64,000 nucleotides of DNA from a virus: IMG/VR virus record IMGVR_UViG_3300029796_000300, one strand, 5' to 3'. Positions 12,758 to 44,749 of this stretch are shown in pieces. The notes under the pieces are model-generated. The model was not told where the DNA came from. It saw only the letters and a program-made list of their open reading frames with translations, and did not search any database. Numbering within the stretch: position 1 is the stretch's first letter; each line of letters opens with the position of its first letter. The position numbers and the translations under genes are program-made.

Positions 12758-13116
12758 TTTGGCTGCTTCCTTCTCGCAGCAGAATCAAATTCATGACCTT
12801 CCATACCGTCCAGATACACAGATGGCGAACTATGCTTCTGCTGGTGCCGTGCAGGTCGGCGATTTGCGAAAACGTCATTCTGTCACGAAAATACTTTTGG
12901 ACGATATCGCGGTTTCGCTCAGGAAGTGTGTCCAGCGCTTCATCGAACATCTCGTTAAAGCCCGGTGTAAATGAAATTTGATTCTTACCCCAGGCTGAAA
13001 TTTGATTCTTACACCAGGCAAAGGATGTATCGTACATAATGGCCGCCTTCCGCCACTCCTCCGGGGCAAACTCAGGCTGGTTAATCTTGTCTGTCGTTTG
13101 TTTCTTTGTCATTTTT
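12714..13116 (-). CDS. small sigma region-4-like HTH DNA-binding protein; contains in-frame tandem repeat (AWCKNQIS AWGKNQIS)
   Basis: RNRDIVQKYFRDRMTFSQIADLHGTSRSIV resembles sigma-70 region 4. Confidence 0.5.
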
Positions 13117-15722: not shown

Positions 15723-17117
15723 TTATTTTTTTGCCTCGGCTGCTGCATGGGGAAGCCGCACCCAGCCGCCCTTATGACGAACAAGCTGGATTTTCTTCAT
15801 GCTGACCATAAGCGGCTTTCCATCCGTGAGTAGGCTTAATGCCCTGCCATAGCTGGAGCAGCCCTTGGAAACGTATTTGCGATTGCCGTAGACCACGATA
15901 TCTCCCGGCTGCATGGCATATCTCTGCTTTCTGGTCGAGGTTCGGCCCTTTGACTTCTTACAGCCACGGAACCGGCGCAGATTTTCGCCGTCAAGGTTAT
16001 GATTGCGGTTCGTCCTGCCGGAGGACAGCTCGTTGCCAGAACGGATAACTCCCTTTTCCCGTGTGTCGTAATATTTGGCGTCATAGAATTTGGATAGGAC
16101 TCTGTTGTTTCGCCTGTATTTCTGGAAGACCTCTGTTTCGCATCTGGCTTCCGGACGCAGCTCGCCCATGCAGTAGGCATCCGTAGCGCAGGAATACGGG
16201 AGGCCGAGGTTGGTGCGGACGCGCTTGGAGATGACGCCATAGGTCATGTGTACTTCCGCAACACCCTGGAAGCGAGCCATCGCACGCTGATAGAGAATCC
16301 AGCGCACGCTATTCATAAACGCTTCGCCGGTATATTTCCGCAGAGGCTTATCGAAGCCCCACAGCTTCCCGCCCTCCTTGTGATTGGCAGGTGTGTTGCA
16401 CTTCTCGCAGCAGGTCGCAAGCTCCCTCATGCTGTTCCCATGCAGACCTTTCCAGTAGTAGGCGTGATGGACATGAAGGATAGCGCCGTCTTTCAGGCCT
16501 CTCTTGCAATACACACAGGTATAGTGGTCCCGTTCAAAGACCGCTTCCCGCAGCGTATCGTAGCCGTACTGCGGTCCATGCTGATAGTCCTTGCCCTGCG
16601 GGACAGGTTCCCCTGCCTCCAGCGCCGCAAGGAGCTGTGTATCGTATGTCGCGGCCTTGATAAAGACATCCGTGACAGGCATGACAGACAGATAACGGGA
16701 GATAATATCCAGGTGCCGCTCCACCTTGTTGTCCAGAGACGGAGCAATCCAACCGGGCTTTTTGCCTGATACACGGTTATTGAACCGTGCAGCCCGATAC
16801 CGCAGGCGGTTTCTGCGCGTCCGGCGGTACGCTCGGCAGTCGTCATGGCGAGAGCGCTCGTTCGTGAGCATATCATATTGCTGCGATACGACCTCTTTTG
16901 CCTTTGTCTTAATGCTGACGCCGATATGCTCATATCCGGTGCCGACGCACATTTCGATGGGCTGGGTATAGGTACTGGTATCGTAGGTCAGCTGGATGGT
17001 GAACGGGTTCCGCTTCGCAATCACAGCGCGGCCATCCTTCAACAGATGGCGCACTTTGCCGTAATTTTCGGTCGGCATCAGCCGTTCACCGTTTGCACTT
17101 AAAACACATACTGGCAT
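15723..17117 (-). CDS. IscB-family protein (PLMP, bridge helix, HNH zinc finger present) with RuvC catalytic residues substituted (RuvC-I D->T, RuvC-II E->K, RuvC-III H->C) relative to the canonical copy at 29896..31188
   Basis: Pairwise alignment by eye: ILGVDAGSKTIG vs EMCVGTGYEHIG; VVVETAEFD vs VFIKAATYD; HTNDALAIA vs SCATDAYCM; HNH HVHH kept, N->E. Confidence 0.8.
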   Translation of the reverse strand: MPVCVLSANGERLMPTENYGKVRHLLKDGRAVIAKRNPFTIQLTYDTSTYTQPIEMCVGTGYEHIGVSIKTKAKEVVSQQYDMLTNERSRHDDCRAYRRTRRNRLRYRAARFNNRVSGKKPGWIAPSLDNKVERHLDIISRYLSVMPVTDVFIKAATYDTQLLAALEAGEPVPQGKDYQHGPQYGYDTLREAVFERDHYTCVYCKRGLKDGAILHVHHAYYWKGLHGNSMRELATCCEKCNTPANHKEGGKLWGFDKPLRKYTGEAFMNSVRWILYQRAMARFQGVAEVHMTYGVISKRVRTNLGLPYSCATDAYCMGELRPEARCETEVFQKYRRNNRVLSKFYDAKYYDTREKGVIRSGNELSSGRTNRNHNLDGENLRRFRGCKKSKGRTSTRKQRYAMQPGDIVVYGNRKYVSKGCSSYGRALSLLTDGKPLMVSMKKIQLVRHKGGWVRLPHAAAEAKK

Positions 17118-17640
17118 CTTATTTTTTCCTTTCACGCTGCGGGTGCAGTTTCCTGTCATTCGATGGGGGACGTCAACTGCGTGATGCTCCGTTTGCGGGG
17201 GGCTGCGGTATAGCTACCTGTCATTTGGTGGGGGACGTCAACCTGTCAATCCGGATTGCAATTTAATCGTACGGTATAGCTCCCTGTCATTTGGTGGGGG
17301 ACGTCAACTGAAGTTGAGTTTGCCGAGTATATTCCAAACGACAAACCAAAAAGGTAAATCAGCACTTACCGCTCACGCGGCGTTACTGTGGTCCACATCG
17401 CCAAGGATATACCGGGTTTGATGGTACGCACACTTCTCCTTCCCCTCAGAGATGTTTAATACGCACCCGCAGAGCGGCGGACTTGTGGAGTATCCGCCGG
17501 TGCCTATGTATTCCGGCATATCGTAGTCTTGCGGCTGAGGCTTATTGACGAGGCTTACTCTCCTTGCGGGTCATAAGCCACACCAAATGACAGGAGGCTG
17601 AGCCGGAGTTTCCGGCGCACCCGCCCGCCATTCGGCGGGG
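17118..17640 (-). ncRNA. putative IscB omega-RNA region upstream of iscB-like gene (shares conserved core with region 31189-31470)
   Basis: Structured, non-coding, homologous motif ...ctcagag.tgtttaa...ccgcagag...ccgccggtgcctat... shared with second IscB locus. Confidence 0.45.
17139..17313. repeat. three direct copies of 26-bp unit CCTGTCATTTGGTGGGGGACGTCAAC at ~70-bp period; unit is complementary to CACCAAATGACAGG at 17586-17599
   Basis: Direct reading of sequence. Confidence 0.75.
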
Positions 17641-17645
17641 TAAAG

Positions 17646-17984
17646 CTAAAGAGCAGCGTCCTGATTGACAGGACATTCGAGACTCATGTTTTTTCTCTTC
17701 TCACAGGACTCTGCCTGCGACCACAAGCTGTTTGGCAGATTGAGCACCGTTACGAGGACATCCCCGGCAAACAGATAGACGTGCCGGTGATATACTCGAA
17801 TATTGTTGATGGTTTTGTTTTTGAAGCGGATGGATGTAAGGTATCCATTCAGGTGGCCTCTGGTCTCCGAGTGCTTCACGCCAAAGTCAAAGGCTTTCTG
17901 TGCATTGCGCACGGCTGCTCTTTTGCCGAGACCAGCACGCTGTTTTGTACGCTTCCTCGCGTGTTTACTTACCTGCGCTGACAT
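17646..17984 (-). CDS. basic hypothetical protein (MSAQVSKHARKRTKQ...)
   Basis: Internal Met of ORF 17646..18128; weak RBS. Confidence 0.3.
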   Translation of the reverse strand: MSAQVSKHARKRTKQRAGLGKRAAVRNAQKAFDFGVKHSETRGHLNGYLTSIRFKNKTINNIRVYHRHVYLFAGDVLVTVLNLPNSLWSQAESCEKRKNMSLECPVNQDAAL

Positions 17985-18567
17985 GGTTCGTATCATTCTG
18001 ATGGACAGACACCGCGTTGCGATTGGCCTGCCGAATGAGCGACAGGATATCGTCCAGCCTGTTTCCGCCAAAGTACACAAGTAATGGCTGATACAGCGCC
18101 AATACCGCCACAACAAAGCAGACGGCATCAGCAGTACCCGCAGGGAAATCCGCCCGTGCCATAACTACAGAATACAGGCTTGCCAGCAGTACAATCGCCG
18201 CTGTGAGGGAAAGAACGGTATGGAAGAATAAAGCGAGCGCCTTACTCACAGCACCGCAGTTGGCGAACTTCTTCTCCACGAAATACTTCGCAGCCGGCAA
18301 GCCCACCAGGACTGCCAGCAGCACAAGCTGGATACCAAGAGAGACTTTGGGAATCTGGAACTCCCGGCTCTGGAAGAACAGCGTCACGCGGCTGCCGACG
18401 TTCAGGGTTTCAATGAGTAGGAATAGCCACAGAACCGCAAGCACCAGCGGTCTCGGCGCATTGAGCTTGCCCACGGCGAAATCGCACAACACCCATAGCA
18501 CAATGAGTACCGCAAGCTGCGGCATCATGAGCCGCCCTAATTCCAGAGCAAAACTAACAAAAGTCAT
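17965..18567 (-). CDS. polytopic membrane protein (several hydrophobic helices)
   Basis: 200-aa ORF, strongly hydrophobic. Confidence 0.55.
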   Translation of the reverse strand: MTFVSFALELGRLMMPQLAVLIVLWVLCDFAVGKLNAPRPLVLAVLWLFLLIETLNVGSRVTLFFQSREFQIPKVSLGIQLVLLAVLVGLPAAKYFVEKKFANCGAVSKALALFFHTVLSLTAAIVLLASLYSVVMARADFPAGTADAVCFVVAVLALYQPLLVYFGGNRLDDILSLIRQANRNAVSVHQNDTNHVSAGK

Positions 18568-18598
18568 TGTTCATTCCTCCTGAAAAATTTACCGATTC

Positions 18599-18674
18599 CT
18601 GTCATTTGGTGGGGGACGTCAATCCTGCGGGCCAGATGATACTCCCTGTCATTTGCTGTGGCACATCAACGATT
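18599..18674. repeat. two further copies (one degenerate) of the 26-bp CCTGTCATTTGGTGGGGGACGTCAA unit
   Basis: Direct reading. Confidence 0.65.
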
Positions 18675-18699
18675 AAAAAGACGAGAATTCCCCTACTTG

Positions 18700-19010
18700 A
18701 GAAAACCAAAGATTTGGTAAATCAGCACTTACCGCTCACGCGGCGTTACTGTGGTCCACATCGCCAAGGATATACCGGGTTTGATGGTACGCACACTTCT
18801 CCTTCCCCTCAGAGATGTTTAATACGCACCCGCAGAGCAGCGGACTTGTGGAGCATCCACCGGTGCCTATGGATTCCGGCATATCGTAGCCTTGCGGCTG
18901 AGGCTTATTGACGAGGCTTACTCCCCTTGCGGGTCATAAGCCACACCAAATGACAGGAGGCTGGGTCGGAGTTTCCGGCGCACCCGCCCGCCATTCGGCG
19001 GGAGTGCAGA
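18700..19010 (-). ncRNA. orphan near-identical duplicate (~300 bp, a few SNPs) of the omega-RNA-like segment 17341-17640, not adjacent to any iscB
   Basis: Near-identity over ~300 bp incl. CACCAAATGACAGGAGGCTG at 18946. Confidence 0.45.
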
Positions 19011-19382
19011 CTAATTGTTGTAGGAATTGAAGGGGCAAAGCATACACTTTTGCAGGTCCTCGCCGCAGAACTGGCAGAAATCCACCTCGCTTTCCCGCAT
19101 CTTCTCAAAGATGGCGGCGAAGTTCGGCCAGTGGAAGCCCAGCGCCTTTCCGAGACTGTCGAGAAGCACATCCTGTGATAGGGCGGAAAACAATTCCGCG
19201 TCGCACAGCGGTTCGTCTGTCTCCGAATTGATGGGACAGACGATAACAGAGCCGCCGGTGATGTCTTCCCGCCATTGCGGCGGTGTTTCCCGGATGGTGT
19301 TGCCCTCCGTGTCCACAGTTTTTCTGGCCACCGTGTAGACGCCGCGCTGCACTACGACCGTGCTGCTCTTTGCATCCGGCAT
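19011..19382 (-). CDS. hypothetical Cys-containing protein
   Basis: 123-aa ORF directly downstream of helicase. Confidence 0.5.
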   Translation of the reverse strand: MPDAKSSTVVVQRGVYTVARKTVDTEGNTIRETPPQWREDITGGSVIVCPINSETDEPLCDAELFSALSQDVLLDSLGKALGFHWPNFAAIFEKMRESEVDFCQFCGEDLQKCMLCPFNSYNN

Positions 19383-19384
19383 TT

Positions 19385-21385
19385 TCAGTCTCCTTTCCCC
19401 GCCGCCAGCAGGCGCGGCACAAACTCAGATACTTCCAGTTTTTCTTGGTACATCTTCCGGCAGGTGATGATTTCCAGCTCATGCCGTGCCCGCGTCGCTC
19501 CGACGTAGAACGCTCGCGCATCCTCTTCGTCATCCTCCGCGTCGCGGTCATCGCTGTCACCGGGAATGATGCCAGATACCATGTCGATTAAGATGACCTT
19601 ATCGAACTCCAGACCTTTACTGGAATGGATGGTGGTAACGGTCACATTGGAATCCTCGCAGCCCTTATATTCCGTGATGTTTTTGAGTGCGGCAAGAAAG
19701 TCCGGAATGGTCGAATACTTCTCCGCTACCATCTTCAAAATGCTGATACGCAGGCGGATAAACTGCTCGGAAGCACCGGCGTCAATTTTCTTCGTCAGCC
19801 AGTTGCTCCAATAGTCGAGCATGAACAGAATGTAGTCGATAGCCTCAGCAGGCTTCTTCTTCGCAAGGTCGGAAAAGTCCCTCGGCAGGCATTCTATTTT
19901 CCATGCGTATCCCTTGCCGCCTGCAAATTTCATCGCGGCGCTGAATACGTTCCGGCACTCCCCTTCTTCAACCGCCTCGATAATGCGCTTGGCGGTGACG
20001 CCCTTCATGTAAAGGCCCATTTTGTAGTACAGATGCCCAAAAGCGGTGGTGTCAGCAGGGTTCAGGGCCAGAAGCATAAAGTCGAGCAGGTCCCGAATGA
20101 CGTAGTTCGTCATGAAGGTCCCCGTCGCATCTCTGGTTTGAACCTGAATGCCGTTCATCTGGAGCAGATTGATAAGAGGGATGGCAGAGTCGTTATTCCG
20201 ATACAGAATTGCCAGGGATTCATCCGGCTTCTGATTCCGGATGCGCTCCAGCAGAAGCTCCGCCTGCTGTTCCATGCGGTCGATGCAGGTCACGACGATG
20301 GCTCCGTCCTTTTGGGACTGGGCACGCATATTCTTGTCGAGTCGTCTCGTATTCAGTTTGATGAACTGATTGGCCGCTGAGACGATGTTCCTGTCGCTGC
20401 GGTAATTGGTCTCCATACGCAGGATACAGGGTTCGTTATAGTTGCTCTGGAAGTCCAGCAGTGCGGCAGGATACGCGCCTCGGAAGCCGTAGATGCTCTG
20501 GTCTTCGTCTCCGACCATGAAGATATTGCCATTCCGCCCAACCAGCTTCTGGACGATAAGGTGCTGGACATACGAGGTGTCCTGCGCCTCGTCCACACTC
20601 ACATAGCGGAACTTCTCATGCGCCCGCTGTAAGATGTCCTGGTATTCATCCAGCAAATCATTTGCCATGAGAAGCTGGTCATCAAAATCCATTAAATCAT
20701 GCTCGCTCATGTAGAGCTTGTACGCCTGGTAAAAAGCAGAAAAATCAAGGCTGTTTTCTTCGATGGCCTCAATTTCCTGAAAGGTCATGAGCTTGTTTTT
20801 TACTTTGCACACCTTCTGCGCGAGAGACCGCACCTGTGAATCACTGGGATACTCCGGAAGCATCTTAGCCGCAATAGCACGGACGATGCTCTCGTTGTTC
20901 GGCACCAGCTTTGGTACATGAATGTACTTCTCTTTCGCACAGGTATTGATGACGGACAGGCAGAAGCTGTTGATAGTGGAGAATACCGGTATCCGTTCCG
21001 GGGCAAACTTCTTTATGAAACGCTCCTTCATTTCCTTTGCCGCAGCGCGGGTATAAGTGATGGTCAGGATATTCTCCGGCTTTACGCCTGCGACATACAT
21101 GAGATAGCCGGTTCTCGCTACGATGACCGTAGTTTTTCCGCTTCCCGGCACAGCAAGGAGCAGCGTTGCTCCATTCACGCGCCGGACAGCGGCTTCCTGC
21201 TGTTCGTTGAGTCCGCAAATATTGAATTTTTGGCAAAAAGTGTGGTAATCCAATGCAGCGCACCCCCGAACTTTTATATTTACATTATACCACACATTAG
21301 CTTGATTGTCAATTCGTTTCAGAAAAGCTAAGCGCCCCAAGACAAGGAGCGCTTGGCTTGCTGGCTGACGTCTACTGCTTCTCAA
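19385..21385 (-). CDS. UvrD/PcrA/Rep-family SF1 DNA helicase (N-terminal extent uncertain)
   Basis: Motif I AVPGSGKTTV, motif II FRYVSVDEAQDTSY, motif III MVGDEDQSIYGFRGA, motif V/VI TVTTIHSSKGLEFD. Confidence 0.8.
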   Translation of the reverse strand: MRSSRRQPASQALLVLGRLAFLKRIDNQANVWYNVNIKVRGCAALDYHTFCQKFNICGLNEQQEAAVRRVNGATLLLAVPGSGKTTVIVARTGYLMYVAGVKPENILTITYTRAAAKEMKERFIKKFAPERIPVFSTINSFCLSVINTCAKEKYIHVPKLVPNNESIVRAIAAKMLPEYPSDSQVRSLAQKVCKVKNKLMTFQEIEAIEENSLDFSAFYQAYKLYMSEHDLMDFDDQLLMANDLLDEYQDILQRAHEKFRYVSVDEAQDTSYVQHLIVQKLVGRNGNIFMVGDEDQSIYGFRGAYPAALLDFQSNYNEPCILRMETNYRSDRNIVSAANQFIKLNTRRLDKNMRAQSQKDGAIVVTCIDRMEQQAELLLERIRNQKPDESLAILYRNNDSAIPLINLLQMNGIQVQTRDATGTFMTNYVIRDLLDFMLLALNPADTTAFGHLYYKMGLYMKGVTAKRIIEAVEEGECRNVFSAAMKFAGGKGYAWKIECLPRDFSDLAKKKPAEAIDYILFMLDYWSNWLTKKIDAGASEQFIRLRISILKMVAEKYSTIPDFLAALKNITEYKGCEDSNVTVTTIHSSKGLEFDKVILIDMVSGIIPGDSDDRDAEDDEEDARAFYVGATRARHELEIITCRKMYQEKLEVSEFVPRLLAAGKGD
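21283..21311 (-). promoter_or_regulatory. consensus promoter TTGACA-N17-TATAAT with TGTGG extended -10 (type A)
   Basis: rc: TTGACAATCAAGCTAATGTGTGGTATAAT. Confidence 0.6.
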
Positions 21386-24599: not shown

Positions 24600-24795
24600 T
24601 ATGATGATTTCTCCGTCTGAGCACTCAATGACGGAATAGGCTCCCTCACTCGAAATATTGACACTCCCCACGGCTAAAGCCGGGGGATTCCTGGTTCAAC
24701 GACCGCAGCCTGCACGAGCGAGGTCTTACATGGTCTCCCCAGGCGTATCGGTTCGGGCGTGTCCCGCCCTACCATGAGCAAAAAGTCTATCAGGC
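24600..24795 (-). ncRNA. putative TnpB omega-RNA (reRNA) at 3' end of tnpB / right end of IS
   Basis: Structured GC-rich hairpins immediately 3' of tnpB (CCCACGGCTAAAGCCGGGGG etc.). Confidence 0.4.
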
Positions 24796-25911
24796 TGCGG
24801 ACGACCGCTTGCGAAGCCCCTCTTCCAGGATGTTCTGCGCCGCGTTGATGTCGCGGTCATGGAACGCGCCGCACTGCGGACAGGTCCAAAACCGGATACC
24901 GAGGTCTTTGACCTCTTTGTTTTGATATCCGCAACAGCCGCAAGTCTGGCTGGATGGGAAGAACCTGCCGATGATGACGAGTTCCTTGCCATACCAGTCA
25001 GCCTTGTAGGCAAGCTGCCTGCGGATTTCGCCCCATGCGGCGTCCGCAACATGGAGCGCGAGCTTGTGGTTCTTCATCATGTTTTTGGAGGACAAGTCCT
25101 CTATGCAGATGATGTCATTGCTCCGCACAAGCTGCGTCGTCATCTTATGGATGGCGTCATTCCGTTGGTTAGCAATATGCTCATGTAACCGCGCAATTTT
25201 AACGCGAGCTTTCTCACGGTTGCAGCTCCCCTTTGATTTTCGGGAGAGCTGCCGTTGGAGGCGGGCCAGCTTCTTGAGATTGCGGCGGTAGCTATGGAGG
25301 TTGTCGTACTTCACGCCATCCGATGTGATAGCCAAGTCCTTGATGCCGAGGTCTATGCCGACAGCGGCTCCGGTCTTTGGCAGCGACTTGATGTCCACGT
25401 CGGTACAGCAAAGGGAAACATAGTATTTGCCGCTGGCTTCCTGTGACACAGTAGCAGAGAGCACTCGGCCCTCCACCTTGCGGCTGACGCGGCACTTGAC
25501 ATTGCCGAGCTTCGGGAGCTGCATCGCACCGTCCAGCACCTTGATATTGGTGCCGACGCATTTGCTTTTATAGCTGCGGCGGTGCTGGCGCTTGCTCTTG
25601 AAGCATGGAAATCCCGGCTTCTCACCGTGCTTCACACGGCGGAAGAAGTTCTGGTAGGCGGTATCCAAGTCACGCAGGGACGATTGCAGCGCAGTAGAAT
25701 CCACCTCGCCGAGCCACGGACGTTGTTTCTTCAAGGCGGTCATATCGGCGGAGCAGGCCTTATAGCCAAGTGTCGTCTTGTCTGTCTTGTAAGCGTCAAT
25801 ACGCTTGGCGAGATAGTAGTTATAGACGAAGCGGCAGCATCCAAAGGTTCGTTGTATCTGAATCGTTTGCTCTTTCGTAGGGTAGATACGAAATCTGTAA
25901 CTATGCTCCAT
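24790..25911 (-). CDS. tnpB: TnpB (IS200/IS605 family OrfB; RuvC-like nuclease, intact catalytic motifs)
   Basis: [10 protein letters not shown]; [10 protein letters not shown] (D); ICIEDL (E); CGCCG...[18 protein letters not shown]. Confidence 0.85.
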
Positions 25912-25957
25912 GAAATCACCGCCTTTCATACTTGATTATACCATATTTTCGTGGTTT

Positions 25958-29895: not shown

Positions 29896-31188
29896 CTATG
29901 CAACCAAATAACTTTGGCTGCGTTCCAATAGTTTTAAGTGTTTGTAGCTCACGCCGTCTTTGACCTTTTCTCCGTTGAGCTGCCGCAGCAGGAAGGAGCC
30001 GCTGGTGCGTCTCCCCCAGACAAAGCACTCGATACCGTTGTAGAGCACCTTGTCGTAGAGGCGGAAGCCGCAGATGTACTTCTCTGCCTGATTGGCCTTC
30101 CGCACACCGCCCTTCAGGATGGTCGCCTTGTGCAGCTGACGGTTGTGATGTCTCACAGGGCAGATGGTGTAAAGTTGGTCCGCCTGACGGATATTTGGCA
30201 GGTATTCTGCGCGAAAGCCCTGCGGGCCGTGCGCGATTGCCAGCGCGTCGTTGGTATGGCTCTTCGGCAGCACCAGCAGATTCTCCCGCGTAGCCTTGGT
30301 GATGTAGCCCCTGGTCTCCACAACGGGGACAGGAAGCTGCTCCCGCAGCCTCCGCAGCAGCGTCATGCGCATGATGCCCATGAAGGTTGCGTCGCGGGTG
30401 GAGCGGCGCTTGCGCTTCTTGATGTCCGCTGCCATGATAATGCCCTTGTGGAGCTTATCGTGACAGGCGGTACAGAGCGTTACCAGATTGTCCGGAGCGT
30501 CACCGCCTACCCTGCGGCTCTCAAGATGATGCACATGGAGCGGGACGCCCTTCCTGACGGAGCCATGCACCCCGCAGATGCGGCAGGTATAGCTGTCGCG
30601 CCACAGGACGTACTGGCGCACGTTGTAGTGGCCGTACATCTCGCCCTTCTGGTAGTCCTCGCCCTGCGGAACAGGCTTCCCTTCCGCAACGGCCTTGAGG
30701 AGCTGCAAGTCGAACTCGGCGGTCTCTACAACCACCTTGCTGACAGGCAGGATGGCGCAGGCACGCCGGATGGCGGTCATGTGCTCCTGAATCTTGACCT
30801 CCACGGAGGGCGCAAGCCAGCCTTTGTGCTTGCTCCGCACGCGATTGTCGAAGCGTGGCTTGCGATACCGGGTGGTACGATTGCGCCGCGCACGGCGGAA
30901 TTGCCTGCGTGCGGACATCAGCTCGACTACATCGTTGCGCGGCTTGACCTCTGCGGAGAACAGTTCCTCCGTTTCGGTGGCAGCTGAAAGACCAATGGTT
31001 TTGCTGCCGGCGTCCACACCGAGGATGACCTCCTGCGTATAGCCGGTACTGCCGTAGAGCAGCTGAATGGTAAATGGTGTTCTGTGTCTCACTTTTGCCT
31101 TGCCCGCATCCAGAAGATGACGGGCCTTCGCCGGTGTGCAGGGCATCAGCGGACGCCCGTGCCGATTGAGAACATAGACCTTTGGCAT
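29896..31188 (-). CDS. iscB: IscB (OMEGA RNA-guided nuclease; PLMP, RuvC-I/II/III, bridge helix, HNH all intact)
   Basis: RPLMPCTP; ILGVDAGSKTIG; RRARRNRTTRYRKPRFDNR; VVVETAEFD; CRICG...HVHH...DNLVTLCTACHDKLH; HTNDALAIA. Confidence 0.85.
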   Translation of the reverse strand: MPKVYVLNRHGRPLMPCTPAKARHLLDAGKAKVRHRTPFTIQLLYGSTGYTQEVILGVDAGSKTIGLSAATETEELFSAEVKPRNDVVELMSARRQFRRARRNRTTRYRKPRFDNRVRSKHKGWLAPSVEVKIQEHMTAIRRACAILPVSKVVVETAEFDLQLLKAVAEGKPVPQGEDYQKGEMYGHYNVRQYVLWRDSYTCRICGVHGSVRKGVPLHVHHLESRRVGGDAPDNLVTLCTACHDKLHKGIIMAADIKKRKRRSTRDATFMGIMRMTLLRRLREQLPVPVVETRGYITKATRENLLVLPKSHTNDALAIAHGPQGFRAEYLPNIRQADQLYTICPVRHHNRQLHKATILKGGVRKANQAEKYICGFRLYDKVLYNGIECFVWGRRTSGSFLLRQLNGEKVKDGVSYKHLKLLERSQSYLVA

Positions 31189-31470
31189 ACGTTGATGCCT
31201 CCTTTCTTTGGGTGCGGCTAAAAATTAAGCCGCTCAGCCTTTCGGCTGTCAGGTATCCGTACCCAATGTTATCCCAGGGTTTTGTGTATGCAGCACTGCT
31301 CCTTACCCTCAGAGCTGTTTAACCACACACCGCAGAGTGGCAGATTCGGATTCACGTCCGCCGGTGCCTATCTATTCCTGGGTAACGTAGTGTTCGAAAC
31401 ACTTAGGGTAGTCAATCAGGCTCGTGGTTCGCACCACAAGCCCCCGGCTTTAGCCGTGGGGTTACATTGA
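31189..31470 (-). ncRNA. putative IscB omega-RNA immediately upstream of iscB
   Basis: Non-coding structured region homologous to 17400-17560 core; terminal hairpin CCCCCGGCTTTAGCCGTGGGG. Confidence 0.5.
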
Positions 31471-33200
31471 CTTTGAGGGACCCCTCTCACTTTGGCCTTT
31501 TCGATTTTTCCAATCACTTCTGTTACCTTCTGTGCAGTCAGAGGGCTGGCGGTGGATTTATCCAGTGCGTCCAGCAGTTCCGGCAGCTCGCCGAGTTTTA
31601 CGACCGGGATTTCGCTGTTGTCCGCATCCTGCAATTTTACATTTGGGTTGGCAAGGCAGATGATGCCGCATACCGGAACATCCTCACCAACGATTTTCGA
31701 CAGTAAGGCAGCGTGACGCTTAACTTGGAAAGCTGGGCTTTCCGTTGTGGTGAAATGCCCTGCATTTCGCATATCCCGGTCCCAATAGTTCGTGTCATCG
31801 ACGCGGATGGTTCCAACGTAGTTTTTTGTCTCAATATGAATGACGCCGGCAGGTCCTACGAGGAGGTGGTCGATTTCCTGTGGCTCTTTCATATAGTCCC
31901 ACGCGGCGATACGGATACATCCTCCGCTGTACTTGCTCACGCAGTCTGCCGCGATGCTGCGGTATGCGCTGTGCTCTGCAAGCCACCACTTGAGTTTGTA
32001 ATTCACTTCCCTCTCACCGGCTTCGCCCAGTTCTCGTGCTTTGCGCTCCCGCTCCTCCTGCTCTTGCTCCACACGAGCGGCTTCCGCCGCCGCGCTGGCG
32101 ATTTGATTGCGGTAGTTCGAGCACACGCTTTCCGCGAGACCAGTCACGCCTTCCAGTATCAGATTAAGCTGACTATTGAGTTGAAAATGTTTGGCCGCTA
32201 TTTCGCTGCGCAAGTGCAAGATGTTTTTCGATTTTTCGAGAAGCACACACTCACCGAGCGTAAGGTCGGAGTAAGCGTCGCAGAAGGCATCTGGGATATT
32301 GAGCCTGCACTTCTCCATTATCCAGCTTTTTACTTCCGCTCTCTTCTGTGCTCTGACACAGCAATACTCCGGATGCGTCCGCTCCAACGTGTCGATGTAC
32401 TGTCGCGCATGGGCGATGATGCCGCTTCGCTCCGCAGCAATCGCTGCTTCCTCGGCCTGCTTCGCCTCCGCTTCCCGGCATCTGGCCTCTTCCTGCCTGC
32501 GTTGCCGCTCCTCACGGATATGCTGCGCGGTCTTCCCGCTTACGCCAGGTTTGAACTCGTACATCTTTCCGGTCGCAAACAGGGCTTTCAGCAGGACGGA
32601 GACATAATAGGCGCTGTACGGAATCAGCAGGACAATGCCAAGGTAGCAGAACACATAGGATACGACGCCGAGAGCCTTCCACAACGAGACGACCAGGACG
32701 AAGGCCGCAACGTAGGCGGCCAGATAGATAAGGCATTTTGTCCTCTGATTTTTGTCGCGAGTCATGGTCAAGAATTTGCTCTGCTCCACATAATCCGCAT
32801 ACTGTTCATCCGATACGACTTTCTGCCACTCGTCCGCCATGCTGCGGTTTGCAAAGAAGAAGGTTCGGAGCATTAACAACAAACCGATAACCGCCAGCAA
32901 AATGAAGGCCACAATGCAGACACAAAGGAGTGCGAGCACAGCGCTAATCACCTTGAGGATACCGTGACCGAGCAGTTCGGCGAGCCATCCGCACAGCTGG
33001 GTCGCCAGAATTCCGCCCATGCCGATGCAGAAGGTCTTAGTGAGCAGTGCAGCTTCCTTTTTCAGTGTTGCCTTGACTGTACTGTAGTATGTTTCCGCAG
33101 ACCTTATCCCCTCGTTGTTCTCCACAATTTCCCGTGCGGCATCCATGTACTTATGAAGCCGGTCAACAAACCAATCTTTGATGGAATCCAACATAAGCAA
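31416..33200 (-). CDS. membrane-anchored NERD (nuclease-related) domain protein
   Basis: N-terminal TM helices; C-terminal ...NYKLKWWL...DHLLVGPAGVIHIETKNYVG NERD pattern; 3' end overlaps omega-RNA region. Confidence 0.65.
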   Translation of the reverse strand: MLMLDSIKDWFVDRLHKYMDAAREIVENNEGIRSAETYYSTVKATLKKEAALLTKTFCIGMGGILATQLCGWLAELLGHGILKVISAVLALLCVCIVAFILLAVIGLLLMLRTFFFANRSMADEWQKVVSDEQYADYVEQSKFLTMTRDKNQRTKCLIYLAAYVAAFVLVVSLWKALGVVSYVFCYLGIVLLIPYSAYYVSVLLKALFATGKMYEFKPGVSGKTAQHIREERQRRQEEARCREAEAKQAEEAAIAAERSGIIAHARQYIDTLERTHPEYCCVRAQKRAEVKSWIMEKCRLNIPDAFCDAYSDLTLGECVLLEKSKNILHLRSEIAAKHFQLNSQLNLILEGVTGLAESVCSNYRNQIASAAAEAARVEQEQEERERKARELGEAGEREVNYKLKWWLAEHSAYRSIAADCVSKYSGGCIRIAAWDYMKEPQEIDHLLVGPAGVIHIETKNYVGTIRVDDTNYWDRDMRNAGHFTTTESPAFQVKRHAALLSKIVGEDVPVCGIICLANPNVKLQDADNSEIPVVKLGELPELLDALDKSTASPLTAQKVTEVIGKIEKAKVRGVPQSQCNPTAKAGGLWCEPRA

Positions 33201-33793: not shown

Positions 33794-35182
33794 TTAAGAG
33801 ACTGTCATGTATTTGACATCCTGCTCCATTGCTTCATAGTACGGTATCTGCCATTCTTCGCACAGAATTCCATACTCTACCTGCGTCTTTTCCGAGACTG
33901 CTTTCAATGTATCGACTCGCCGGATATCCATAATGGTTCCCACGGATATCAACAAGCCGTCTTTGGTCTTGAGCGGAAATAGCTTCGCACTCACATCGGT
34001 GTTCTTCGTATAGATGCCGCTCTCGACCGCCGCCTCTATAATGTCCATTTCCTCCGCATCGACGTCAGTCTCTGCCAGCGTCCGCATCTGTGCAACGCCC
34101 TTTCTATCCAGCGTCAGCACATAAAGGTGGTCTAAGCCCTTTCCGAGATACTCTTTCCGCTTTCGCCTTTTCAACTTATCGCTGTAAATGTCGGCCAGGT
34201 CTTTTGCGTTCTTTACAATGAGTATTCCGTTGTTTTGCTGAGAGATGGTTCCGGCTCTGTTCGCGTTTCTGGAAAAGCCGTTTTTCAGTGTGATTTCCTT
34301 GGATACAATGTGCTCGTGCCAATCCATGCCGTTCGCGTTTGCGAGATAGACAATGTAGCTATGAAAACAGCCGATTAAAAGACCGCTGAGCCTGCACATC
34401 ATAAGCCCGCGTGCTGCCTGCTTCTTCCGCTCCTCGGACAGCGTTGACAGCTCGACCCGTTTAACTTCATCGGACGAATAGAATATGGGGCCATCTTTCT
34501 TTTCCCCTCTGTTCCGAATCGTTATATTTCCGTTAGTTGCTTCCATTATCATCTTCATCAATGGCGTTCCGTCATCTGCTGCGCAGGTCACGACTTCGTA
34601 CTCGGCTTCGCATTCATCCTCCTCGTAATCGTCCTCGTCGTTGTCCGCACCATCTTCCCCAAGAATGCTCTCAATGTCGTCGAGCCACCAGCGGTCGGAT
34701 TGCTCGTCGGTGTTCATCTTCTGTTTGGAGGCTAAAACACTCTTCTCCATTTCCTCCTCGCTCCTGACTATAAACATCATCTTTCCGCTGATGCCAGCTT
34801 CCACCGCCATCTGCATTGATACTGTTGACCGAAGGAACCGTTCCGCGTAATTCGTTGAAAAGCGCGTGCCTTTGATTTGCACTCTTTCGGAGTCCTCGAC
34901 GCTGAGATTGGAAAGCCATTGGATTTTATGTGAGCATTTCTGCTTGAGGTATTCAATGCCGATTGATGTTATAGTGAGATACGTCAGTTGATGTTTGCGA
35001 GATACGCCTTTGATGTTGTATGTCATTCGCCCATCACTGATGGTTCGTTCTTCCAACCCGCGTTCAACAGCACGATAGATGGCATCTTTTGAAAAGTTGA
35101 GCAAGAGAAGGGATTTCTTGGTCGCATAATTGAACACAAGCAGTTGGTATAGGATGCTTTCATAGCAGGTCAATCGCTCCAT
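33794..35182 (-). CDS. hypothetical protein (462 aa) at upstream edge of conjugation block
   Basis: Long ORF; acidic central stretch; no recognised motif. Confidence 0.6.
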   Translation of the reverse strand: MERLTCYESILYQLLVFNYATKKSLLLLNFSKDAIYRAVERGLEERTISDGRMTYNIKGVSRKHQLTYLTITSIGIEYLKQKCSHKIQWLSNLSVEDSERVQIKGTRFSTNYAERFLRSTVSMQMAVEAGISGKMMFIVRSEEEMEKSVLASKQKMNTDEQSDRWWLDDIESILGEDGADNDEDDYEEDECEAEYEVVTCAADDGTPLMKMIMEATNGNITIRNRGEKKDGPIFYSSDEVKRVELSTLSEERKKQAARGLMMCRLSGLLIGCFHSYIVYLANANGMDWHEHIVSKEITLKNGFSRNANRAGTISQQNNGILIVKNAKDLADIYSDKLKRRKRKEYLGKGLDHLYVLTLDRKGVAQMRTLAETDVDAEEMDIIEAAVESGIYTKNTDVSAKLFPLKTKDGLLISVGTIMDIRRVDTLKAVSEKTQVEYGILCEEWQIPYYEAMEQDVKYMTVS

Positions 35183-36936: not shown

Positions 36937-39429
36937 TCAGCGCCTGAAGGCAGCGCAAGTACGCTTCTGCTCAATTCGGCGCTTCGCAGCGGCTCTTGCT
37001 TTTGGGTCAGTCGTTATCAGGTATTCTTCCGTATCCGTCGCCTTAACATTGATGAAAATGTGGTTCTCATTTGCGGTCAGGAGACAGGTTCCACGGTCCA
37101 TGGTTTTTACACGCTTGAGTTCCTCGTCGGTCAGACCAATCGCATCCGCAATCGCGTTTGCTTCCTCTTTTTCACTGCGCAAAATCATTTTGATTTTGGC
37201 GTTTCCGATGATGGCGGTGCCAATTCCCGCAGAGAAGAAGTCTGCGATATTCTGCGTGGCAGCGACGGCGCTTCCACCGAAGCCTCGGATAGTACGGAAG
37301 ATTTCGACCACGAAATTGGCGGCTTCGATAGGTGCATCGGAGCAGACCAAGCGCCAAGTCTCGTCAATGAAAACACACTTGTTGACGTTCCGATTTTCTT
37401 TGCATTTATCCCAAACATAATCCAATGCAAGGAACATAGCAACAGGAAGAAAGTCTTTCTGCGCATCGGAAACATCCAGCACTACGAACTTGTTGTTAAG
37501 GTTCACATTGGTTTGCGCGTTGAACGAAGATGCAGAACCTGTGGTGTATCGCGTCAGCAAACGGCACAAACGATTTGCTGGTGCGCCCATCTTTTCCAGT
37601 TCAGAATATACATCCGAAAGGATAGGCATTTTACGGTATTTCTTCTTGTCGTTGGGGTCCAACAGGCTCTTGTTCTTATGGGTAATTCCGAAATTGCCGT
37701 AAGTTTTCAGCAGCGCGTCATCCACATACTGCACCTCTTCTGGCGTCATGTCCGGGATAATCAGCTTAAAGAAAATGAGAAGCTGCTGGATTTTCTGTGC
37801 CAAAATCGAGCCGGAAGTGACCAACGCACCATCGTCATCGTAGACGTTGCCCTCTTCCTTCTTGCGTATCTCCATGATATTGATATTCTGTCCGGAGCCA
37901 GGTTTGATTTCAATGAAACTGCCCCCGACCTTCTCACAAAGCGGCAGGAACTCCTTGCCTTTCAGCGGCGCGATAATGAAGGTTTGAACCCCCTTCTCCC
38001 GCATTCTCAATGCCAGAACCTGTGTGGTGAAGGTCTTACCGGAGCCAGAGGAGCCGACAATATTGATGTTGGCATTGATGTATTGCTGGCGGTCGAAGAA
38101 GTTGACCAGAACCGGTGATTTGAACACATCATCCACGCCCAGCATCACGCCGTCCTTATCGCACAGCTCCGAAGATGTGAACATATAGGTGGACGCAAAA
38201 TCGGAACACAGAATATTTCTGCGGCTCTTACGGAATAGGTTTTTGTCATACTCACATACGGGAATGGTGGAGCGAAACGCTTCTGCTTGCTGGAAAGTAC
38301 AAGGCTTGAGAGTCAATTCTCTCTCAATGAAAATGCGCCGGATTTCCTTGAATTTGTAGTCAATTTCTCGCTCGCTTTCGCCTGTAATAGTGAGCATTGT
38401 AGACATATAGGCAAATTCGTCGCCGGCCGAGAGAGAGCTTTTCAGATAGTATCCTGCGTCCACCGCAGCCTTCACATCATCGTAGTCACTACTGGTGGTT
38501 TCTGTGTTGCGGAAGCGCATTGCATTGAACCGCAGGCCATGATGCAGTGCCGTTTGAATTTTCTCCGGTGAAATCTTCTGAAGCCAAACATCCACATCAA
38601 TCCCCTCTCCCAGCCCTGCCAGCAGCTGCATCCAGCCGCCAAGAACGCGCACAGGATAGGCATTGCTCGGAAGATAGCAGCACATATAGTAGATGCCATC
38701 CACGATGATATATCGGGGACTTGACTCCGTATCAATACAGTACGGAGCAAGCACATCATTGACAGGAAGATGCGCCGCGCTATCTCGCGTGAAGTCGATG
38801 TTTGCCGCCGTATATCGGGCAACAACATCCGCCATTCTCTCGTCAAACGGGTGGTTCGCGCTCTGTGCTCTGGACATGATATCGTAAAGCGTGGAAAGCA
38901 CATAGACGTCATCGTGAGGCCTTGAAATCATAATGTTGCCGCAGGCCCGAAGGTTGCTTCTGATGGCGTCCTCCTGTCTCGTAATGGTGCTTCTGATTTC
39001 ATTCCATGATGGTGAACGATGTGCGAATCCCTCTTCTTCCTCATACTGGAATGCGAGAAAGAAGCGACGGGATACGCCTTGCGACGCGCCAAATTCTGAC
39101 ATCATGTTGATTTGCTCCCGCATCAGTTCACGGGTTCCTTCATTCTTTTCATGGCGCACGCTTTCCACCATGCCGGAAATATAGTGTTCGACATTTGCGC
39201 GATTGGACAGAACTTTGATTTGGACAACGCTTGGAAACGAGCGGATTGCAGCCGCATATTGTGCCGTAATCATGTTCTTATCCTCGTTTGACCGTAAGCC
39301 GTAGTTGATAGGAGAGAACTCCATCAACTTCACAAATTTCCCGTCTTTCGTGACGATGATGCCGTCACGGACATCACTTATGGGCGAGAAAGATTGGCAG
39401 CTTATTACTTGTTTCAGTTTTCTGGACAT
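36937..39429 (-). CDS. VirB4/TraE/TcpF-like type IV secretion ATPase
   Basis: Walker A GSSGSGKTF, Walker B VFIDETWRL, size ~830 aa. Confidence 0.85.
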   Translation of the reverse strand: MSRKLKQVISCQSFSPISDVRDGIIVTKDGKFVKLMEFSPINYGLRSNEDKNMITAQYAAAIRSFPSVVQIKVLSNRANVEHYISGMVESVRHEKNEGTRELMREQINMMSEFGASQGVSRRFFLAFQYEEEEGFAHRSPSWNEIRSTITRQEDAIRSNLRACGNIMISRPHDDVYVLSTLYDIMSRAQSANHPFDERMADVVARYTAANIDFTRDSAAHLPVNDVLAPYCIDTESSPRYIIVDGIYYMCCYLPSNAYPVRVLGGWMQLLAGLGEGIDVDVWLQKISPEKIQTALHHGLRFNAMRFRNTETTSSDYDDVKAAVDAGYYLKSSLSAGDEFAYMSTMLTITGESEREIDYKFKEIRRIFIERELTLKPCTFQQAEAFRSTIPVCEYDKNLFRKSRRNILCSDFASTYMFTSSELCDKDGVMLGVDDVFKSPVLVNFFDRQQYINANINIVGSSGSGKTFTTQVLALRMREKGVQTFIIAPLKGKEFLPLCEKVGGSFIEIKPGSGQNINIMEIRKKEEGNVYDDDGALVTSGSILAQKIQQLLIFFKLIIPDMTPEEVQYVDDALLKTYGNFGITHKNKSLLDPNDKKKYRKMPILSDVYSELEKMGAPANRLCRLLTRYTTGSASSFNAQTNVNLNNKFVVLDVSDAQKDFLPVAMFLALDYVWDKCKENRNVNKCVFIDETWRLVCSDAPIEAANFVVEIFRTIRGFGGSAVAATQNIADFFSAGIGTAIIGNAKIKMILRSEKEEANAIADAIGLTDEELKRVKTMDRGTCLLTANENHIFINVKATDTEEYLITTDPKARAAAKRRIEQKRTCAAFRR

Positions 39430-40301
39430 TAAAACAAATCCTCCTCGTCAAGTTCTTCATCTTCCCCATCCGCGTCGCCTTCGGCGTCAGAATTATCCTC
39501 TGCCGCAGGCTCCAGTTGCGTTTCACACGCGGGGGGATTATCGTCAGATTCCTCGGCGTCAGGCATCTCGTTAGCGTCATCGTTGCTCAATTCCACATCG
39601 TCGGCCCCGCCCAAATCCGGCAACGGCAGGCCAGATTCCTCAACGGTGCTGCTGTCGATATCCTCCGTAAATCCGTCCAGTTCCAACGAGGTATCGTCAT
39701 CCTCTTCCAGGACTTCCACTTCAACGAAGGATTGGTTGTGCTTTGATTTATGGCGATTGCCGGCGGTGCCGCTCGGCGTTCCATCGCCATCGTCATCTTC
39801 ATCAATGTAGTTGCCCTCAAGTGAACTGTCAGGTGCAAACTCGAATGTTTTGCCTTCAACCATCTCCTGACTCGCCCGTTCGGCGGCCTTCTTTTCCTTT
39901 CTGGTATCCAGAAAATCCCTGAGTTTGTCGCCCATGCCATCTTCCGACATCATGAGCTTAATGGGGGCTTCCTTCAACGCTCGTGCTTCGTTGTTGAACA
40001 GCATCAGCCCCCGTTTTCTTCGCCATGAAAAGAAAATCTTGATAAAGGTGGACAGCGGGTCGCCGTTCACTCCAAACAAGCCAAGCAGGCCAAGTGGTGC
40101 GGAAAGGAATATGACCAGGGATATTTTTGTAGTGATAGGAACTGAAATGACATTCCAAAAGAAAATTGCCAATACCCCCGAAATCAATCCTCCTTCCACT
40201 ACATTGCGTGTCTTTAACTGCCCTTGAAATAGTCTGGATTCTCCCATAAAATTTTCTGGAATAATGAACTGTTTCAAGTCCTCGTTACGCTTATCGCTCA
40301 C
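39429..40301 (-). CDS. VirB3/TcpE-like small membrane protein with long acidic C-terminal tail
   Basis: Two TM segments N-terminal; position directly upstream of VirB4. Confidence 0.45.
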   Translation of the reverse strand: MSDKRNEDLKQFIIPENFMGESRLFQGQLKTRNVVEGGLISGVLAIFFWNVISVPITTKISLVIFLSAPLGLLGLFGVNGDPLSTFIKIFFSWRRKRGLMLFNNEARALKEAPIKLMMSEDGMGDKLRDFLDTRKEKKAAERASQEMVEGKTFEFAPDSSLEGNYIDEDDDGDGTPSGTAGNRHKSKHNQSFVEVEVLEEDDDTSLELDGFTEDIDSSTVEESGLPLPDLGGADDVELSNDDANEMPDAEESDDNPPACETQLEPAAEDNSDAEGDADGEDEELDEEDLF

Positions 40302-40389
40302 GAGAATGCAAGCCTCCTTTCAAAAAAGCCGTTTCAAAGAAAAGCGCGGCTCCGACTCCGGGTGGAGGGGAGCCGCACCGAAACGGTCG

Positions 40390-41643: not shown

Positions 41644-41719
41644 TGCTATTGCCTCCTTTGCGTTATTTTGGGCATCTTAATGCCCTACGCTTTTATTATT
41701 ACAACCTTTCATTCAAAAG

Positions 41720-42331
41720 TCAATTTTTTCGCGGATTTTCAAAAGTAAAAGACCTATGAACGGAATCCCGCTCATAGGCCTTCTTCTTGTTTTTCAATGA
41801 TAACCCGATGATAGTGAGTACATAGGACGACTCGATGTCCGTTCTCGGAATCAATCCGACAATGGAGCTGCGGCTGTCAAGGCTGTTGTTTCGATTATCC
41901 CCCAGCACAAAGTAATAGTCCTCCTCCACGGTGAGAGGAAACGATATGCCATCGTCATATTCGATGTTGGTCGGGGTATTCGTGTACGGTTCACTCAGCG
42001 CGATTCCGTTGCGATAGACCACCCCCTGTTCGAAATCAATGTCGATGGTATCACCGGGGCAACCAATAATACGCTTAACGATATTTTCATCCAGACCGCT
42101 CGAATTGCAAACAACAATGCTCTCAAACTCCAGATTCGGCTTAATGTGATTTGTCAGAATCACACTATTGTCCGCAAGCGTCGGCACCATAGAAGGGCCG
42201 GACACCACAACAACATTGAACAGGATTCGGAACAAAAGAAGAGCGATAATAAGCCCCTCCATGGAACCCTTGAGCACTTCACGGCTCCATACAGTGCGGT
42301 TGGTGAGATTTTGTTCTTTCATTGGAATCAC
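41720..42331 (-). CDS. lepB: signal peptidase I (S26 family)
   Basis: SGPSMVPTL (Ser box) and GDNRNNSLDSR motifs. Confidence 0.8.
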   Translation of the reverse strand: MIPMKEQNLTNRTVWSREVLKGSMEGLIIALLLFRILFNVVVVSGPSMVPTLADNSVILTNHIKPNLEFESIVVCNSSGLDENIVKRIIGCPGDTIDIDFEQGVVYRNGIALSEPYTNTPTNIEYDDGISFPLTVEEDYYFVLGDNRNNSLDSRSSIVGLIPRTDIESSYVLTIIGLSLKNKKKAYERDSVHRSFTFENPRKN

Positions 42332-42348
42332 CTCTTCTTTACGCTTAT

Positions 42349-42377
42349 ATTATACCACACTTTATCTTATTTGTAAA
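42349..42377 (-). promoter_or_regulatory. type A promoter TTTACA-N17-TATAAT with TGTGG
   Basis: rc: TTTACAAATAAGATAAAGTGTGGTATAAT. Confidence 0.55.
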
Positions 42378-42464
42378 GTATCGAATGAAGTGACCTTACA
42401 TACAACGGCGCAAGCAAAAAGGCACGTCAACGAAATGTTGGCGTGCCTGTGGCCTGTGCTGATA

Positions 42465-44741: not shown

Positions 44742-44749
44742 TTACCTCC

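Follow-up and report, generated by a model that had tools for sequence, protein, structure and literature searches.

We analysed a 64-kb window (the whole 64,000-nt stretch of IMG/VR record IMGVR_UViG_3300029796_000300) carrying a gene for a RuvC-dead IscB protein together with repeat arrays and two copies of an omega-RNA-like scaffold, with all features of the locus read on the minus strand. On this strand, the features followed one another from 5′ to 3′ as scaffold copy 2 (19010→18716), repeats RA and RB (18670→18588), a gene for a 200-aa protein (18567→17965), a gene for a basic protein (~17996→17646), scaffold copy 1 (17645→17353), three further repeats (17308→17142), and iscB itself (17117→15723). 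As detailed below, the architecture is very probably that of an omega-RNA split between scaffold and repeat, combined with arrays of spacers.

The RuvC-dead IscB protein

The iscB gene (15723–17117, minus strand) encodes 464 aa from the ATG at 17117, beginning with MPVCVLSANGERLMP. The product belonged to the IscB family, including the PLMP/RRXRR N-terminus, and matched NCBIfam NF040563 guided_IscB with 243.8 bits (cut-off 175), Pfam RRXRR at 6.2e-41, and IscB chains in PDB at 1e-30. Residues were called from an alignment with 118 homologs and with the canonical IscB of the same window. The original prediction of a dead RuvC domain was borne out at each of the three motifs, where D was replaced by G in RuvC-I (CVGTGYE), E by K in RuvC-II (FIKAATYD), and H by C in RuvC-III (SCATDA), with the Asp of motif III retained; an intact RuvC catalytic site was thus absent. 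Relatives retained the D in 113/118, the E in 112/118, and the H in 114/118 sequences, and the D, E, H and H residues were kept by relatives at 50–59% identity (112–114/118). The HNH domain of the dead IscB preserved the HxHH histidines, both CxxC pairs and the last His, and an Asn-to-Glu change in this domain was common to 117 of the 118 relatives.

The motif I and motif II substitutions were found in 14/14 distinct full-length alleles, 12 of which had an undamaged open reading frame (ORF). The more diverged alleles differed from the window allele by 20 synonymous vs 9 nonsynonymous, 16 vs 4, and 25 vs 12 changes, corresponding to a nonsynonymous-to-synonymous polymorphism ratio (pN/pS) of 0.07–0.15. 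One allele (L031) appeared frameshifted, in a contig with 0.9x coverage. The protein cluster contained ~2,100 member sequences. Judging from these alleles, the lineage has fixed the loss of RuvC while purifying selection maintains the protein, the same combination of fixed inactivating substitutions and purifying selection that is characteristic of TldR.

Repeat arrays and a split omega-RNA

The repeat core GTTGACGTCCCCCACCAAATGACAGG (minus-strand reading) occurred at 17283–17308 and 17217–17242, and imperfectly at 17152–17177 (2 mismatches), 18598–18623 (1 mismatch), and 18645–18670 (4 mismatches), with no matches expected by chance (100 shuffles). These are the five copies of the original prediction, in which the unit was taken to be 26 bp long; the actual unit measures 36 nt. 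Array 1 (17142–17308, minus strand) contained repeats R1 (17273–17308), R2 (17207–17242), and the terminal R3 (17142–17177), separated by the spacers w1 (17243–17272, 30 nt) and w2 (17178–17206, 29 nt) on the same strand. The regularity predicted for these three copies held, with a period of 65/66 nt (36-nt repeat plus 29/30-nt spacer) in place of ~70 bp. R3 was located 24 nt upstream of the iscB start codon, directly before the ribosome-binding site (RBS) of iscB. Array 2 (18588–18670, minus strand) consisted of a degenerate first repeat RA (18635–18670), an 11-nt gap (18624–18634), and repeat RB (18588–18623), positioned 20 nt upstream of the start codon of the 200-aa membrane-protein gene and directly before its RBS. 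A repeat pair had indeed been expected at 18599–18674; its period is 47, and its first member is the degenerate leader-proximal repeat. A search with TRF detected no further arrays in the window.

Each array was preceded by a leader and a scaffold. Leader 1 (17309–17352, minus strand) separated R1 from the 3′ end of scaffold copy 1 (17353–17645, minus strand), and leader 2 (18671–18715, minus strand) separated RA from scaffold copy 2 (18716–19010, minus strand), which began right after the stop codon of a 123-aa ORF. The two scaffolds shared 287-nt direct repeats of 97% identity (17353–17639 and 18716–19002), confirming that the omega-RNA-like segment is duplicated, and both exceeded the gathering score of 83 of the Rfam family HEARO (RF02033), with minus-strand matches of 86.6 bits for copy 1 and 93.7 bits for copy 2. 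An omega-RNA was therefore located directly upstream of iscB on the same strand. However, both copies aligned to HEARO only from the 3′ strand of the P1 stem onward: the P1 5′ strand was absent, as was the 5′ strand of hairpin 1, and neither scaffold made up a one-piece omega-RNA with a 5′ guide and P1 closed in cis. The 5′ extension of copy 1 (17595–17645, minus strand) formed two hairpins. No iscB-like frame was present beside copy 2, which, in agreement with the original prediction, is not the remnant of a second decayed IscB element; tblastn of both window IscBs against 17600–19400 returned chance matches only, short and scattered (best E = 0.08).

The strands missing from the scaffolds were found in the 36-nt repeat, GUUGACG-UCCCCC-ACCAAAUGACAGG-UAGCUAUACC, each copy of which carries GUUGACG, a C-rich junction, and then CACCAAAUGACAGG. 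Repeat nt 1–7 were complementary to the P1 3′ strand of the scaffold, CGUCAAU (17544–17550 in copy 1 and 18907–18913 in copy 2, minus strand), and repeat nt 13–26 were complementary to CCUGUCAUUUGGUG, the 3′ strand of hairpin 1 (17581–17594 and 18944–18957, respectively). Both scaffolds are therefore tracrRNA-like (resembling trans-activating CRISPR RNA), with a type II-like anti-repeat of 14 + 7 complementary bases. The presence of the reverse complement of the repeat inside both copies had been predicted correctly, with starts given as 17586 and 18946 in place of the actual 17581 and 18944. The 14-mer CACCAAATGACAGG occurred five times in the window, where chance expectation was none: three copies belonged to minus-strand repeats, and the other two were on the plus strand at the hairpin-1 segments of the two scaffolds.

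Cofolding of the scaffolds with the repeats (ViennaRNA) predicted a three-way junction composed of 7 bp of P1 and 14 bp of hairpin 1 formed in trans and of hairpin 2 formed in cis, with a free-energy difference (ddG) of −25 kcal/mol for the repeat and scaffold vs −7.4 ± 2.8 for shuffled repeats (best shuffle −15.7). The long-range pairing that had been raised as a possibility is thus predicted to rebuild the 5′ junction of the omega-RNA. The full two-stem junction was predicted for R2, R3, RA and RB with their native upstream sequence. In the minimum-energy fold of R1 the hairpin-1 duplex formed, and the P1 strand paired instead with leader 1, whose terminal bases CUCAACUUCA (17309–17330, minus strand) can pair with the R1 start (GUUGA) and sequester its P1 strand; leader 1 itself may not act as a guide, as modelled here. 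The paired topology placed the 3′ end of a spacer exactly at the guide position of a one-piece omega-RNA. The gene order also fits the pairing, because scaffold and array must share the transcribed strand.

Sequence variation followed the same pattern. Among 30 repeat variants, paired positions showed the lowest minor-allele fraction (0.043), followed by the junction (0.107) and the tail (0.19); 20 of the 27 substitutions at paired repeat positions retained standard or G-U pairing, and the anti-repeat segments were invariant in 36 scaffold copies. Seven relatives, six of them RuvC-intact (L001, L003, L039, L041, L050, L051) and one with a single E-to-K change (L049), lacked repeats and had, immediately ahead of the gene, a one-piece HEARO RNA whose P1 was closed in cis (GUCAAUAA...CGAUUGAC and variants). 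Likewise, the canonical IscB copy in the window was associated with a one-piece omega-RNA with P1 closed in cis. In alignment A1, the scaffolds of the dead lineage matched the one-piece relatives well, starting at hairpin 2 and the P1 3′ strand, and contained an unrelated self-pairing segment where the relatives have GUCAAYAACCCCG.

Loci for comparison were collected by repeat scans of IMG/VR, of one genome per species and of metagenomes, by protein search, and through homologs of the membrane protein, amounting to ~35 contigs. The repeat adjoined the same dead IscB on every contig that included the gene. Arrays ranged from 1 to 10 repeats of 36 nt with spacers of 29–31 nt (L007 as an example), compared to 3 + 2 repeats in the window; the repeats were regular, and the spacers were unique and uniform in length, so that the arrays are CRISPR-like. 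The mini-array of repeats and spacers that had been offered as one possible explanation is therefore real, with up to 10 repeats and unique 30-nt spacers in relatives. More than 25 distinct spacers were distributed over these contigs in shared mosaic blocks while the IscB proteins were 98–100% identical, so that spacer content differed between near-identical strains. The spacer order was w1-w2 in the window type, x1-w2 in L009, x1-s5-s6 in L012, x1-s5-s8 in L019, s1...s8 in L007, and a-b-w2-s8 in L015, with novel spacer sets in L017 and L046. The iscB-proximal spacers w2 and s8 were the most widely shared. The upstream module (array 2) held two extra 30-nt spacers in L020 and L046, so both modules can hold spacers.

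Several details of the arrays were recorded alongside. In spacer w2 (17178–17206), the length of a poly-C run ranged from 6 to 8 C, and the end next to the repeat had a variable CA. Spacers w2 and s8 shared the central motif CCGCAAACG and co-occurred in L015 and L027; they are possibly two guides directed at variants of one site. Two leader types were present across the loci, and the leader types recombine. In L032 (880–1060), a type-1 leader and one repeat were joined directly to the RBS of the membrane-protein gene, a junction that would have arisen by recombination between repeats of the two arrays or as a chimera of a low-coverage assembly.

A second RuvC-dead lineage was represented by homolog P0067, a singleton known from one contig, in which the Asp of RuvC-I has independently become Ser and the Glu of RuvC-II has become Gly. 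In a neighbour-joining tree, the neighbours of P0067 and those of the query were all RuvC-intact, and the common ancestor of the two proteins spanned 111/116 tips. The contig (L048:1–956, ena ERZ27293309 k141_1054384) contained at least three complete tandem omega-RNAs before P0067 (118.5 and 120.6 bits) with a period of 338 nt. Additional 14-nt copies of the P1 5′ segment were also present, and a different 17–20-nt sequence preceded each of them. A multi-guide layout was thus observed in 2/2 RuvC-dead lineages vs 0/7 intact or single-mutant relatives (Fisher p ~0.03, a small sample), which lends independent support to the split-omega-RNA reading proposed below.

Carrier element, cassette and neighbouring genes

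The carrier is best read, from its gene content, as a conjugative element of a human-gut Oscillospiraceae bacterium. Genes at 36937–46075 of the window (minus strand) specify a coupling protein of the VirD4 type (1e-49), an ATPase of the VirB4/TraG type, and a CHAP + lysozyme hydrolase, and no capsid, portal or credible terminase was found in the window. IMG/VR lists related contigs as viral; assignment of the carrier to phage was rejected in favour of a conjugative element after the VirD4-like and VirB4-like matches. Related contigs are as long as 571 kb, in a genome of Oscillospiraceae, which suggests chromosomal integration. Phage and plasmid collections contained no near-identical DNA. No TnpA domain was detected among the ORFs scanned, and the locus occupied the same position within the element wherever flanks were available; its layout, as first noted, is not that of IS200/605. 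Neither the 27 window ORFs compared with Pfam nor the 7 neighbouring proteins compared with PADLOC contained a Cas1, Cas2 or other Cas domain, in a scan that did not include all small ORFs.

The two genes between the modules form a cassette. The first (17965–18567, minus strand) encodes the 200-aa hydrophobic protein, judged by eye from its sequence to be a polytopic membrane protein, which had no match in Pfam, PHROGs, PADLOC or NCBIfam. It constitutes an orphan family of 39 matches, all of at least 81% identity, and the long contigs examined were the same element. The second (17646–17996, minus strand) encodes a basic protein of 112–116 aa, depending on an uncertain start codon, that matched phrog_16724 (1.2e-16), a family of unknown function. 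The membrane-protein gene showed a pN/pS of 0.34–0.45 and 94–95% nucleotide identity vs ~99% for the flanking genes, and the basic-protein segment existed as two alleles among the relatives with ~17% nucleotide divergence (~83% identity). The cassette (17646–18567; L043/L046) thus diverges faster than its flanks, as a local hotspot of variation or recombination.

Two further relatives of RNA-guided nucleases were encoded in the vicinity, making three within 16 kb of the element. A canonical-looking IscB of 430 aa, encoded together with a one-piece omega-RNA at 29896–31471 (minus strand), had an intact GVDAGS motif and was 35% identical to the dead IscB; the omega-RNA scored 118.6 bits against HEARO and overlapped the 3′ end of a NERD-domain gene (31416–33200). 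By its sequence features, this IscB is an ordinary insertion in the same element. A TnpB of 379 aa (24790–25929, minus strand) contained OrfB_IS605, Cas12f1-like TNB and HTH_OrfB domains. A UvrD/PcrA-like helicase (19385–21385, minus strand), whose best PADLOC matches were GajB-type helicases, was encoded two genes upstream of the arrays; it recalls, by analogy, helicases paired with nuclease-poor RNA-guided systems and could equally serve replication of the element. Two short tandem repeats unrelated to the arrays were located at 12972–13019 (24 nt x 2.0) and 34963–35017 (22 nt x 2.3).

Interpretation and comparison with known systems

We propose that the locus probably encodes a CRISPR-associated IscB with a split omega-RNA, which would bind DNA or nick it but not cut both strands. 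Minus-strand array transcripts would pair with the scaffold as CRISPR RNA (crRNA) does with tracrRNA, rebuilding the three-way junction of the omega-RNA and setting the 3′ end of the preceding spacer at the omega-RNA guide site, with host RNases probably trimming the transcripts. IscB would load the resulting two-part RNA and find spacer-matching DNA beside a target-adjacent motif. Without a working RuvC domain, no double-strand break would follow: IscB would only bind, or HNH would nick the target strand. The functional part of this reading is put forward as tentative. The most likely role would be competition between mobile elements or gene silencing, as in type IV-A3 and Cas12m systems, because the carrier is conjugative and has no adaptation genes; the analogy with type IV-A3 and TldR points the same way. 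New spacers could be supplied by host Cas1-Cas2 in trans or by recombination between arrays. The second scaffold and array would represent a duplicated guide-producing module that also serves as the 5′ leader of the cassette genes.

Several observations weigh against this reading. The first is the lack of identified targets: none of the spacers yielded a protospacer in the window, in ~50 related loci, among INPHARED phages, or among PLSDB plasmids, and six exact 20-mers searched in IMG/VR returned the arrays themselves or nothing. Specifically, BLAST of ~26 spacers against the window and all fetched loci gave no non-array match of 15 nt or longer and hence no self-targeting or regulatory spacers, and BLAST of 19 spacers against cultured phages and plasmids gave nothing except a chance match to a Methanobacterium virus (E = 0.4). 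Similarly, no guide complementary to a promoter, as in TldR, was matched within the 64-kb window or the related loci. The second group concerns the spacers themselves. Their order is mosaic and not strictly polarised, the strict leader-end polarity of spacer diversity that we considered being broken by L046, and therefore ongoing acquisition is not proven. Some spacers have small repeat-adjacent indels, which are unexpected for guides under strict selection: L004/L005 lack 4 nt of w1, and w2 shows an added CA and a poly-C run of variable length. Because all array-bearing loci belong to one closely related lineage, conservation of their layout does not constitute independent evidence. The remaining points concern the protein. 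The iscB allele of L004 (the same contig as L010) had a stop at codon 11 (GAA→TAA; L004:301–312), possibly a pseudogene or a sequencing error, and the metal-ligand His after the second CxxC of HNH was replaced by Asn in the dead-IscB lineage only. Cas9 has Asn at the equivalent HNH metal site, and HNH activity of the dead IscB is possible, as judged from its sequence.

Spacer w1 also gave an apparent 13/14 match to 17659–17672, where the basic-protein gene ends in a hairpin that has CCTGTCA in common with the repeat; the match was set aside as chance or repeat-related.

The same observations would accord with a fossil, that is, a decaying non-functional IscB insertion in which the omega-RNA was duplicated and scrambled and the repeats are leftovers of partial duplications. 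The lost RuvC residues, the tiny arrays of the window (2 and 0–1 spacers), the indels next to repeats, the premature stop in one allele, and the failure to find spacer targets could all be accommodated in this way. Decay is nevertheless improbable, although it fares best among the alternatives: the reading frame stayed intact in most full-length alleles at a pN/pS of at most 0.15, the paired repeat positions and the anti-repeat were conserved while junction and tail varied, more than 25 unique spacers of 30 nt are regularly spaced in the relatives, and the protein cluster has ~2,100 members.

Mimicry of the anti-CRISPR kind, by which the dead IscB and its tracr-like scaffold would soak up crRNAs of an IscB- or Cas9-type system of the host, is marginally less probable still. 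In its favour, the effector is RuvC-dead and HNH-retaining, its carrier is mobile, and a UvrD-like helicase is encoded two genes upstream, all of which resembles the published SNF2 case (PMC10910872). That case has no array, whereas the present element has its own arrays with diverse spacers. Moreover, the scaffold did not match repeats of a host: among 185,579 species, each represented by one genome, the repeat was found in one only, in an Oscillospiraceae contig that is the element itself, and all 20 metagenome matches examined were the same element.

We assign an equally low probability to a purely cis-regulatory leader, in which repeat and anti-repeat would pair within one long transcript and thereby regulate the downstream iscB and membrane cassette, through stability or translation, with the spacers being incidental. 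The final repeat of each module precedes the next start codon by 20–24 nt, just ahead of the RBS; all features are on one strand, and consensus scans for promoters and terminators gave counts at the level of shuffled sequence, with no convincing internal promoter or terminator. However, such a leader leaves up to 10 regular repeats, unique 30-nt spacers and spacer turnover unexplained, and cis-regulation is compatible with the split-omega-RNA explanation, of which it may be a side effect.

Least probable is that the scaffolds are tandem omega-RNAs each with its own 5′ guide, or that the duplicated modules are ends mobilising the cassette, as had been suggested: two scaffold copies in direct orientation do surround two genes and probably serve one effector, L048 does contain a genuine tandem omega-RNA array, and L032 does suggest recombination between repeats of the two arrays, but comparison of the scaffold 5′ ends showed near-identical hairpins lacking the P1 5′ strand instead of different guides, which come from the spacers, no TnpA domain accompanies the locus among the ORFs scanned, and cassette homologs are confined to the lineage, at a single position of a single element in every contig examined.

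The split-omega-RNA IscB would have several implications. Very few natural intermediates are known between a one-piece guide RNA and the crRNA:tracrRNA of Cas9, and the locus shows where an omega-RNA can be split, namely in the hairpin 1 loop, leaving a bipartite anti-repeat, with close one-piece relatives available for comparison. The growing set of nuclease-deficient RNA-guided systems that mobile elements maintain (type IV, Cas12m/c, TldR, and the CRISPR-associated transposons, CASTs) gains a member derived from IscB, and the locus offers a compact (464 aa) natural candidate nickase or DNA binder with a multiplexed guide array. Being common in human-gut metagenomes, with its ~2,100-member cluster, the system may affect the traffic of plasmids and of integrative and conjugative elements in Oscillospiraceae. 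A bolder and distinctly more doubtful proposal is that the locus represents a living step from omega-RNA to tracrRNA plus CRISPR array on the IscB/Cas9 side, independent of Cas9 and coupled to the loss of RuvC, which would give a conjugative element a programmable, updatable DNA binder or nickase against rival mobile elements. On this proposal, nuclease loss itself would favour guide multiplexing, as suggested by two independent RuvC-dead lineages of one IscB clade that each acquired a multi-guide layout, with a split scaffold and arrays here and tandem whole omega-RNAs in L048.

CRISPR-associated IscBs with repeat and anti-repeat are already known, as exemplified by DelIscB (PMC12660989), and so are RuvC-dead, HNH-retaining Cas9 and IscB proteins on mobile elements (PMC10910872). 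Our literature search, which did not cover the 2021 paper by Altae-Tran et al. listing CRISPR-associated IscB loci (reportedly 31), returned no report of an array-associated, RuvC-dead IscB on a conjugative element with a duplicated split scaffold. The closest similarity is to DelIscB (PMC12660989), which likewise combines an IscB effector with an upstream RNA containing CRISPR-like repeats and spacers and an anti-repeat joined to an omega-RNA-like scaffold, and needs no adaptation genes in cis. However, DelIscB is an active double-strand nuclease, while the IscB of the window lacks three RuvC catalytic residues. Unlike in DelIscB, the order here is scaffold, array, gene; scaffold and array are duplicated, the carrier is conjugative, and the anti-repeat is bipartite, made up of the P1 3′ strand and the hairpin-1 3′ strand. 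Canonical OMEGA IscB and the present system have in common the protein family, the PLMP/RRXRR N-terminus and the HNH insertion, and their scaffolds correspond over the stretch that runs from hairpin 2 to the 3′ end and contains the pseudoknot segments. The present system differs in having no P1 5′ strand in cis, no 5′ guide, a dead RuvC, arrays, and no signs of IS200/605 mobility.

Type IV-A3 systems on conjugative plasmids have no adaptation genes or nuclease, take up spacers in trans, and silence plasmids (10.1101/2023.06.23.546257). The present locus resembles these systems, and Cas12m and Cas12c, in being borne on a mobile element with no adaptation module, no expected double-strand cut, and a helicase gene nearby. 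In contrast to the single IscB protein found here, the type IV-A3 effector is an unrelated multi-subunit complex, and silencing, trans spacer uptake and plasmid targets have been shown for type IV-A3 and are only proposed for this IscB. TldR (10.1101/2023.11.30.569447) is likewise a transposon-derived RNA-guided nuclease with an inactivated RuvC, kept by selection on a mobile element; it derives from TnpB and uses one fixed guide with a known promoter target, whereas the protein described here derives from IscB and is associated with variable multi-spacer arrays for which no target was found.

Among systems with a dead RuvC and a retained HNH on mobile elements, a phage RuvC-dead, HNH-active Cas9 with an SNF2 helicase and a tracrRNA matching host repeats was proposed to be an anti-CRISPR, and a RuvC-dead IscB was described beside an inactivated Cas12 (PMC10910872). 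These resemble our system in combining a dead RuvC with a retained HNH domain and, in the Cas9 case, in the nearby helicase; however, they have no array of their own (Cas9) or rely on a Cas12 array, while the present locus contains dedicated arrays and a split omega-RNA. Finally, in TranC, transposon-CRISPR intermediates on the route from TnpB to Cas12 as summarised in PMC13565253, a one-piece transposon guide RNA is functionally split into tracrRNA-like and crRNA-like parts, a split similar in kind to the one described here. The TranC split belongs to the TnpB/Cas12 lineage, whereas the present one lies on the IscB/Cas9 side and is coupled to nuclease loss.

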